A stretch of DNA of 34,403 nucleotides from a virus: UHGV virus genome UHGV-0101604; one strand, written 5' to 3'. The translations under genes were made by a program, and so were the position numbers. Below the pieces are notes generated by a model. That model was not told where the DNA came from, made no database searches, and saw nothing but the letters and a program-made list of their open reading frames with translations. Shown piece by piece: positions 29,205 through 30,504 of this stretch. How positions within the stretch are numbered: position 1 is the first letter of the stretch; every line of letters starts with the position of its first letter.

Positions 29205-30504
29205 GGCTGAGGAATCCCCAGAAAAGAAGACAGGCATAGAGTTTTGTGATCTACTGATTGCGCTAACAAATTCAATGAGATCACCTCTATGCCTGCCCGT
29301 AAAGTATGCCAGACTTTTTTCCGTAATGCTTTAGCTTCCACGCATCAGTATCGCCAAAATGCCATTATTGATTCTGCTGCTGCTTTAGTCGGTGGTGCAT
29401 CTCTTTCTCTTACCAGCATTGGCCGGCATTTACTCGGTCCTGCTCGCGTGAAAGATAAAATAAAACGCGTTGACCGTCTGTTGGGTAATAAACGACTTCA
29501 TAATGATATCCCTCTGATATTCAAAAATATTACATCCATGATGACAAATAAACTGTCGTGGTGTGTTATCGCTGTTGACTGGAGCGGTTACCCTTTTCAG
29601 GAATATCATGTCCTTCGTGCCAGCCTCCTCTGCGACGGTCGCTCTATCCCCCTGATGAGTCAGGTCTTCCCGTCAAAAAAATAACGAGGCGGTGGAAATC
29701 GCTTTTCTGGATGCGCTTTCCGGGGCCATTTCTCCCCGGACTCGTGTTGTTATTGTTACTGATGCTGGTTTTCAAAGTGCATGGTTCCGTCATATCAAAT
29801 CACAGGGATGGGATTTTATTGGTCGTATCAGGGGGGTAGTGAAGTTCAGGCTGGATAGTGACAAAGATAAGTGGCTGGACATAAAAATGTGCAGGGGGAG
29901 TTCAGAGGCAAAATACCTGGGGACGGGAACCCTGGCCCGGAAAAAACGCTCGCAGTGTGAAGGACATTTTTATCTTTATAAACATTCACCTAAAGGCAGA
30001 AAAAGCAGGCGTGCCAGAGGGAGGCCGGGCTTACCAACAACGGAAAAAGAACAAAAAGCCGCAGGCAGAGAACCATGGTTAATATTCAGCAATACAGCTG
30101 AGTTTAATGCCAAAAAAATCATGAAACTGTACAGTCGAAGAATGCAGATAGAGCAAAACTTTCGGGATGAAAAAAGTGAACGCTTTGGTTTTAGCCTTCG
30201 GGCGAGCAGAAGTCGGAGGGGAGAGCGTTTTCTGGTATTAAGTCTACTGGTTACACTGGCCAGTATCGTACTCTGGCTACTTGGTTATCATTTTGAAAAT
30301 AAAGGATTTCATTTAAAGTATCAGGCTAATAGTCTCAAAAAACGAAGAGTATTGTCTTTTCTGACGCTGGCTGAGAACGTCCTGAGATTTAACCCTGAAC
30401 TTCTACGACGAGCACAACCTGAAAAGATATTGTGCCGGTTGGCCAGCACTTACCGAAGTATGGTGCTGGCTTACTGATGAAAATTTTCTGGGGATCCCTC
30501 AGCC
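29205..30504 (+). mobile_element. IS10-like insertion sequence (IS4 family), about 1.3 kb
   Basis: Terminal inverted repeats GGCTGAGGAATCCCCAGAAAAG (left) and CTTTTCTGGGGATCCCTCAGCC-type (right); flanking 9-mers CCTTTTAGG / CCTTTCGGG (7/9 match, possible degraded target duplication); encodes a transposase resembling IS10 transposase (KIKRVDRLLGN, VIAVDWSGY, VVIVTDAGF, YSRRMQIEQNFRDEKS). Confidence 0.8.
29289..30477 (+). pseudogene. IS10-like transposase split into two frames (frameshift at an A7 run near 29676-29684)
   Basis: N-terminal part 29289-29684 and C-terminal part 29692-30477 are in different frames, joined at GTCAAAAAAATAA. Either an inactivating frameshift, a slippage site, or a homopolymer sequencing error. 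Confidence 0.7.

Follow-up and report, generated by a model that had tools for sequence, protein, structure and literature searches.

Here we describe an insertion sequence (IS) in the virus genome UHGV-0101604, the whole of whose 34,403 nucleotides (nt) we refer to as the window. Very probably, the element is a copy of ISSfl9, a distant relative of IS10 in the IS4 family, that inserted once and long ago into an IS903-like fragment between the genes gtrII and oacD in an ancestor of serotype-converting prophages of the SfII type, duplicated the 9-base pair (bp) target CCTTTCGGG, bears a frameshift at a run of seven adenines (A7) in its transposase gene, and sits there as passenger DNA. Compared with the annotated copies, it is an insertion already known and already annotated, at its usual position between gtrII and oacD in a prophage of this type. 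What is new is mild: the nesting in an IS903-like remnant, the natural empty sites, and a conserved hairpin resembling RNA-OUT that Rfam does not model. The significance of the element beyond its correct annotation is small. Two determinants of Shigella flexneri serotype 2a, gtrII (O-factor II) and oacD (O-factor 10), lie at this locus; these antigens are relevant to vaccines, and for annotation it is useful to recognize the DNA between the two genes as an older IS fragment that encloses what appears to be a dead IS.

Identity and limits of the element

The element measures 1,296 bp, occupies positions 29207-30502 on the plus strand, and is bounded by 19-nt terminal inverted repeats that match at 18 of 19 positions. 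A pattern search places CTGAGGAATCCCCAGAAAA at 29207-29225 (plus strand) and again, with one mismatch, at 30484-30502 (minus strand), where none would be expected by chance. The ends, CTGAGGAATCCCC and CTGAGGGATCCCC, match those of IS10A, CTGAAGAATCCCC and CTGAAGGATCCCC, at 12 of 13 positions. The initial annotation had recognized an element with IS10-type inverted repeats at 29205-30504; the element and the kind of its repeats hold good, while its limits move inward by 2 bp on each side.

When complete E. coli genomes were searched by megablast, the whole element was recovered at 99.6-99.8% identity and 100% coverage in three E. coli chromosomes, where RefSeq labels the gene, frameshifted, as 'IS4-like element ISSfl9 family transposase'. 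The name ISSfl9 is taken from this NCBI PGAP/RefSeq annotation of the near-identical E. coli copies; a full-text literature search for 'ISSfl9' found no paper, and no IS10-annotated match occurs among the megablast matches listed for the E. coli genomes. From the phage collection, the match is Shigella phage SfII (KC736978, 98.8%), whose gene SfII_26, 'transposase', is intact and encodes 396 amino acids. The insertion is common to phage SfII, an S. flexneri chromosome, and E. coli prophages, and across this lineage the element is 1,296-1,298 bp long.

The SfII record differs from the rest in one place. Positions 3991-4060 of KC736978, corresponding to window positions 29195-29254, carry about ten differences from every other copy of the insertion, clustered at the left end, one of which adds 2 nt to the left arm of the leader hairpin described below. 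At these positions the S. flexneri chromosomal copy (L013) agrees with the window, not with KC736978, and the differences may be a Sanger compression error in the strong hairpin.

The transposase places the element in the IS4 family. The intact protein scores 362.7 bits (cut-off 152) against the NCBIfam model NF033591 (transpos_IS4_2), which is the best model for the IS10A transposase as well, and it is 35% identical to the IS10A protein over 364 residues (E = 1e-72). Domain PF01609 is present, and D97, D159, E289, Y282, R285 and K296 are invariant in an alignment that includes IS10A, the residues of the window copy being split over two frames. The motifs VDWS, TDAGF and Y-x2-R-x3-E-x6-K align between the two transposases. 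By these comparisons, the first description of the element as IS10-like is fair at the level of the subgroup, to which its ends and transposase belong, whereas the element is ISSfl9 and, at such low amino-acid identity, not IS10.

Insertion site, age and the surrounding IS903-like remnant

The sequence before insertion is preserved in relatives that lack the element. A search of E. coli genomes with the two flanks joined found eight genomes in which the flanks are contiguous, at 96% identity and with 8-9 fewer bases, and in the empty sites L011, L012, L167 and L168 the site reads GCTC-CCTTTCGGG-GAGG, with the 9-mer present a single time. A comparison with IS-less relatives, which the initial annotation had proposed, has thus recovered the pre-insertion sequence, and these genomes are usable as natural controls. 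The flanking 9-mers that it had named, CCTTTTAGG and CCTTTCGGG, are indeed found at 29198-29206 and 30503-30511. The right copy equals the pre-insertion sequence and the left differs from it by a CG>TA change that is present in every copy of the insertion, Shigella and E. coli alike; CG is taken to be ancestral because IS903B carries TTTCGGGG at the homologous position.

Perfect 9-bp duplications flank two relatives, CCTTTTAGG around a 75%-identical IS in Pseudescherichia vulneris (L015) and CCTGAAGGG around an IS of 62% identity carried by a plasmid of S. flexneri (L019), which supports a 9-bp duplication in the clade. It was because of these two perfect repeats that 9 bp was chosen over a duplication of 5 bp (CCTTT) or 2 bp. 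We also rejected IS ends beyond CTGAGG, with an inverted repeat apparently 12 nt longer, as the empty site shows those bases to be palindromic target DNA and independent insertions differ there. The Escherichia fergusonii plasmid copy (L008) was dropped as a check on the duplication, since its left flank, with traT, and its right flank, with another transposase, belong to different contexts.

The presence of the insertion in phage SfII, the S. flexneri chromosome and E. coli prophages bears out the earlier view that it is old; judged by this distribution, it took place before the SfII-type prophages of Shigella and those of E. coli diverged. Independent insertions share the short symmetric target C-CCYNNNRGG-G, and the window target, CTCCC-TTTC-GGGGAG, is itself a small palindrome. 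The clade seems to prefer hairpin-like targets of this form.

Other insertions of the clade vary around this pattern. The ISSfl9-like copy in metagenome contigs L065/L114 occupies the loop of a perfect 14-bp hairpin, AATATTAGGGGCCC...GGGCCCCTAATATT. The 9-mers of the L065/L114 and L008 copies likewise differ in their central bases, and such differences could stem from mutation or gene conversion, or from error-prone repair where the target is palindromic. In the window, the mutated left copy, CCTTTTAGG, has the very sequence that the unrelated L015 insertion carries as its perfect duplication (2910-2918 and 4220-4228). A 61%-identical relative on a Yersinia enterocolitica plasmid (L021) is flanked by an 11-bp direct repeat, GAGGGGTTGCC, not by a 9-bp one.

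The target lay in the debris of another IS. An exact 18-bp IS903 terminal repeat, GGCTTTGTTGAATAAATC, is present at 29049-29066, and both flanks of the element align by blastn to IS903B DNA at about 74-80% identity, with homology resuming to the right of ISSfl9 and running to about 30570-30580. In a tblastn comparison, two fragments are 68% and 46% identical to the IS903 transposase, and the minus-strand translation gives residues ~212-236 on the right side and ~233-260 on the left, ending in the C-terminal ...AGMPE...IA*. A terminal repeat and homologous transposase coding sequence are therefore both present, as in IS903 and the IS5 family, in what is a fragment and not a complete member. Because IS903 homology continues on the right side, we read ISSfl9 as nested inside this remnant. 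The moderately GC-rich noncoding DNA to the left of the element had been proposed to be the remains of a disrupted gene; this is borne out for 29049-29206, which hold the IS903-like transposase fragment, while 28840-29048 are native DNA upstream of oacD.

In the IS-less relatives (L168, which is E. coli PM06121, together with L167, L011 and L012), the cassette of oacD and remnant adjoins another gtrC, from the DUF6056 family, and the point at which homology to the window ceases coincides exactly with the truncated end of the remnant. It is for this reason that we take the remnant to mark a junction at which modules for O-antigen modification have recombined, the oacD cassette having been joined there to different gtrC genes. 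In some IS-less genomes, a copy of IS903B or IS1A interrupts oacD itself.

The frameshift in the transposase gene

The initial annotation had the transposase split at an A7 run at 29676-29684. The frameshift at an A7 run stands; the run itself is at 29675-29681 and is followed by the stop codon TAA at 29682-29684. Among six aligned copies, the length of this run is the sole length difference within the gene. The window has A7 and is frameshifted, as are the copies with A8 in E. coli A21, FDAARGOS_144 and SCU-124 and in the IMG/VR contig L148. With A9, which is found in phage SfII, S. flexneri SFBU1023, strain ECMA0423 and contig L154, the frame is open over 396 amino acids, and it is open over 397 in the E. 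fergusonii plasmid copy (L008), which reads A7CA4. The alignment identifies the lesion in the window as a 2-base shortening of a slippage-prone run (A9 to A7).

In this account, an A9 run in codons 129-131 shrank to A7 and translation would stop after 131 residues, parting the first catalytic aspartate (D97, in VDWS) from the second (D159) and from the glutamate (E289). The element in the window would then be non-autonomous, its transposase lost; as both inverted repeats are intact, only an intact copy acting in trans could mobilize it. Relatives at 50-97% identity have a single open reading frame (ORF) of 396-399 amino acids, and the A-run is not conserved among them; because of this, we regard the lesion as a mutation and not as a recoding signal.

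A conserved hairpin over the start codon

The leader of the transposase gene folds into a hairpin whose outer stem is formed by CAGGCATAGAG and CTCTATGCCTG and whose inner stem is formed by GTGATCT and AGATCAC. As minus-strand RNA it folds with -36.9 kcal/mol (z = -5.7). The 75-nt leader is 89-97% identical across relatives whose coding sequences are only 68-74% identical. In 24 distinct leaders, 95.6% of the cells are paired, compensatory change occurs at 3 pairs (8 cells), and none of 500 shuffles reaches the observed covariation score. Most of these leaders were retrieved via the protein, from viral contigs, and are hence unbiased as to the hairpin. Protein-derived relatives were used because an exact-pattern scan of metagenomes for the hairpin arm, which was discarded, gave many chance matches and had its left arm fixed by the query. 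The asymmetry of G-U versus A-C pairs does not settle which strand is under selection, as there are cases both ways among the relatives. The clade is widespread: its distinct leaders, of which there are more than 20, come from genomes of enterobacteria, from prophages and from metagenomes.

By analogy with IS10, the hairpin is most likely the equivalent in this clade of the fold-back and antisense control of transposase translation. Transcripts that read through into the element would have their ATG sequestered by it, and a short antisense RNA resembling RNA-OUT may start just inside the gene and end at a U-rich tract about 15 nt before the IS end. A more specific proposal is possible but doubtful: that the ISSfl9 clade carries an unmodelled counterpart of the RNA-OUT and fold-back system, in the form of an antisense stem-loop RNA of about 75 nt that is made from an extended -10 promoter, terminates inside the element and has diverged too far for the Rfam model RF00240, with residual outward transcription here towards oacD. 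The hairpin is a small lead for studies of antisense control of the IS10 type.

Alternative explanations

Several observations weigh against our account of the element. The 9-mers in the window agree at seven of nine positions, two adjacent bases being different, so that no clean duplication is seen here. An assembly error in the length of the A-run is possible in principle. Neither consensus nor looser scans predict a good sigma-70 promoter for the transposase or for the antisense RNA. The RNA-OUT model RF00240 (gathering score 41 bits) is unmatched in window positions 28600-31000 at E<=10 and in relatives L015, L017 and L020 at E<=1. The IS10A control reaches 85.9 bits, which shows that this search works, and the sole Rfam result in 28600-31000 at E<=10 is a chance snoRNA match of 17 bits.

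Were the A-run wrong through a homopolymer sequencing or assembly error, the true transposase would be intact with A9. Long-read assemblies are error-prone at homopolymers, Shigella has intact A9 copies, and the close relative SCU-124 is frameshifted in gtrII and gtrB also, suggesting errors of this sort. An artefact here, however, would require a 2-base error, the sister lineage is already at A8 in four independent assemblies (three from E. coli and one IMG/VR contig) with none at A9, and gtrII, gtrB and oacD are all full length in the window, which leaves such an error quite unlikely. The run might instead be a functional slippery site, with slippage on A7-A9 yielding some full-length transposase, and thus a switch rather than a lesion. 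Long A-runs do allow RNA polymerase slippage in some IS families, and the length of this one varies (A7, A8, A9) between near-identical copies. The uninterrupted ORF of the relatives speaks against it: their run is either interrupted (A7CA4) or missing, and for that reason we consider the run lineage-specific and not a conserved recoding signal. A slippery site is very improbable, and we keep to a mutational loss of the transposase.

The initial annotation also supposed that the outer end of the element carries a pOUT-like promoter that reads leftward and may influence expression of the acyltransferase gene. Its transcripts would leave the IS on the left and either drive oacD or modulate it over a distance of 367 bp. 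The pOUT promoter of IS10 activates adjacent genes, and the geometry fits, for the transposase gene starts at the end of the IS that is nearer to oacD, and oacD reads away from the IS on the minus strand. At 29311-29303 on the minus strand there is an extended -10, TGnCATACT, kept in most relatives (as TGnCAT..T), including at a synonymous position. A terminator-like hairpin on the minus strand near the right IS end would, in addition, block read-through from gtrII, and oacD could lean more on promoters downstream of that hairpin. Yet the candidate has no -35 and scores 6/12 plus the TG, and a consensus scan for promoters and terminators is empty at this site and finds no outward promoter near the left IS end. 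The predicted transcript folds at once into a hairpin of -37 kcal/mol followed by the U-tract, all inside the IS; beyond these, 158 bp of the IS903 remnant and a further 209 bp of native DNA would still separate it from oacD. The IS-less relatives keep the upstream region of oacD (96% identity) and an intact oacD (in E. coli PM06121 and UID2309220013, both IS-less, an intact acyltransferase of 349 amino acids), and the AT-rich stretch 28840-28960 holds several 8/12 promoter-like sites of its own. With no outward promoter in the consensus scan and RF00240 unmatched, what is left of the supposed promoter is a weak extended -10 ahead of a hairpin and a U-tract, and control of oacD from the IS is unlikely. 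An antisense transcript would probably end about 15 nt inside the IS. The sequence gives no evidence of the IS driving oacD, and we return to the element as passenger DNA, best seen as lying between two independently functioning O-antigen modification genes and not as a regulator of oacD.

Neighbouring genes, features and other copies

The element lies, as first annotated, between a gtrC-like gene and an acyltransferase gene, namely gtrII (99.6% identical to SfII GtrII) and oacD (98%). SfII_25 is oacD, the N-acetylglucosamine (GlcNAc) 6-O-acetyltransferase that gives O-factor 10 (PMC8973906, PMC9558356), and SfII_25 (acyltransferase), SfII_26 (transposase) and SfII_27 (gtrII) were reported as unique to SfII by George et al. 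2013 (PMC3772137). The window, SfII and the three E. coli prophages agree in gene order, which runs from the tail-fibre genes through an opposite-strand acyltransferase gene and the IS to gtrII, gtrB and gtrA. The 7.8 kb around the IS are 99.4-99.6% identical to the three E. coli prophages. On these grounds, the window is recognizable as an SfII-type prophage carrying a known insertion. A GC-rich hairpin, AGGGGCATTCAGCCCCT, at 30759-30775, about 90 nt past the stop codon of gtrII and outside the IS, is the likely terminator of the gtrABII operon. Far from the IS, two adjacent tRNA genes lie on the plus strand, tRNA-Asn(GTT) at 2952-3026 and tRNA-Thr(TGT) at 3032-3107.

Features of the element and its surroundings, with positions in the window
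Feature	Position	Strand	Basis
oacD, O-antigen GlcNAc 6-O-acetyltransferase	27790-28839	-	98% identical to SfII_25; Pfam Acyl_transf_3
Left part of the IS903-like remnant (IS5 family), with terminal repeat GGCTTTGTTGAATAAATC at 29049-29066 and C-terminal pieces of the transposase	29049-29206	-	repeat search, blastn, tblastn
Left 9-bp target copy CCTTTTAGG, CG>TA relative to target	29198-29206		empty-site comparison
ISSfl9-family insertion sequence (IS4 family, IS10-like)	29207-30502	+	identity to annotated copies
Left terminal inverted repeat, transposase-proximal ('outside') end, without GATC	29207-29225	+	pattern search; 12/13 against IS10A left end CTGAAGAATCCCC
U-rich tract UCUUCUUUUCU directly after the hairpin, putative end of antisense RNA inside the IS	29220-29230	-	sequence; most relatives UCUUUUUU(U) at the same place
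Conserved leader hairpin, 11-bp outer and 7-bp inner stem, covering the transposase ATG at 29289	29231-29295		fold, conservation, covariation
Transposase N-terminal fragment, 131 amino acids, including catalytic D97	29289-29684	+	ORF list; premature TAA at 29682-29684
Candidate extended -10 (TGgCATACT), outward antisense, without -35	29303-29311	-	looser motif scan; predicted
A7 homopolymer, point of frame loss	29675-29681	+	alignment of copies
Transposase C-terminal part, +1 frame; DDE_Tnp_1; D159, E289, Y282-R285-E289-K296	29680-30477	+	Pfam PF01609, E = 1.8e-16; alignments
Terminator-like hairpin inside the right IS end	30432-30449	-	promoter/terminator scan; putative rho-independent terminator in the SfII record
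Right terminal inverted repeat, 18/19 against the left, with GATC like the IS10A inside end	30484-30502	-	pattern search
Right 9-bp target copy CCTTTCGGG, identical to the pre-insertion sequence	30503-30511		empty-site comparison
IS903-like remnant, right part: transposase residues ~212-236; truncated at ~30580	30503-30580	-	blastn, tblastn, IS-less relatives
gtrII, serotype II glucosyltransferase	30867-32327	-	484/486 identical to SfII GtrII; Pfam Glucos_trans_II

Further observations concern ISSfl9-like copies elsewhere. Copies on E. coli plasmids and in another prophage (L005/L006/L016 versus L007/L149) share about 53 nt of left flank at 89% identity, which suggests either a larger shared unit or an old common insertion. 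The genes upstream of these copies differ, a helix-turn-helix regulator in one case and, in the other, an acyltransferase whose local match to OacD spans 77 residues at 36% identity. Just downstream of the copy in P. vulneris (L015) lies a group II intron (Rfam RF02012 and RF00029, at 4379-4510 and 6430-6506), and a sok antitoxin RNA adjoins the relative in E. ruysiae (L017, 3513-3667).

Comparison with known systems

The closest known system is SfII_26, the ISSfl9 copy of phage SfII, which shares its insertion site, flanks and neighbours with the window element. The SfII copy in KC736978 has A9 and an intact transposase of 396 amino acids, whereas the window copy has A7 and a split transposase, and the window copy is without the roughly ten base differences that are peculiar to KC736978 near the left end. 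The surrounding remnant resembles IS903B in its exact 18-bp terminal repeat and in the transposase residues ~212-245 and C-terminus encoded in the flanks. It differs in being only about 240 bp long, with an internal deletion and without the other end, and is dead.

IS10, the element that forms the ends of Tn10 and is a member of the IS4 family, is a more distant relative. The amino-acid identity to IS10A is only 35%, no strong pOUT-like promoter is recognizable in the window element, and the target consensus of the ISSfl9 clade, CCYNNNRGG, differs from the GCTNAGC of IS10. The likenesses are those of plan. Both transposases share their best NCBIfam model and the DDE and YREK residues, and the window element, like IS10, appears to have duplicated 9 bp in a short symmetric target. 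The ends read CTGA-GAATCCCC and CTGA-GGATCCCC, with GATC in both elements only at the end distal to the transposase start. Besides the GATC in the right repeat, the window element has two conserved GATC (Dam) sites in its leader, at 29248-29251 and 29280-29283. In both elements, a hairpin of about 65 nt and of the same topology lies over the start codon. The RNA-OUT of IS10A differs from the window hairpin in matching the covariance model RF00240, to which the latter gives no match. In its minus-strand fold, however, the window hairpin is laid out like RNA-OUT, with a long stem, a 3'-side bulge of 4-5 nt and then a second stem capped by a small tetraloop, and it is of similar stability and takes the same position relative to the IS end and the ATG.

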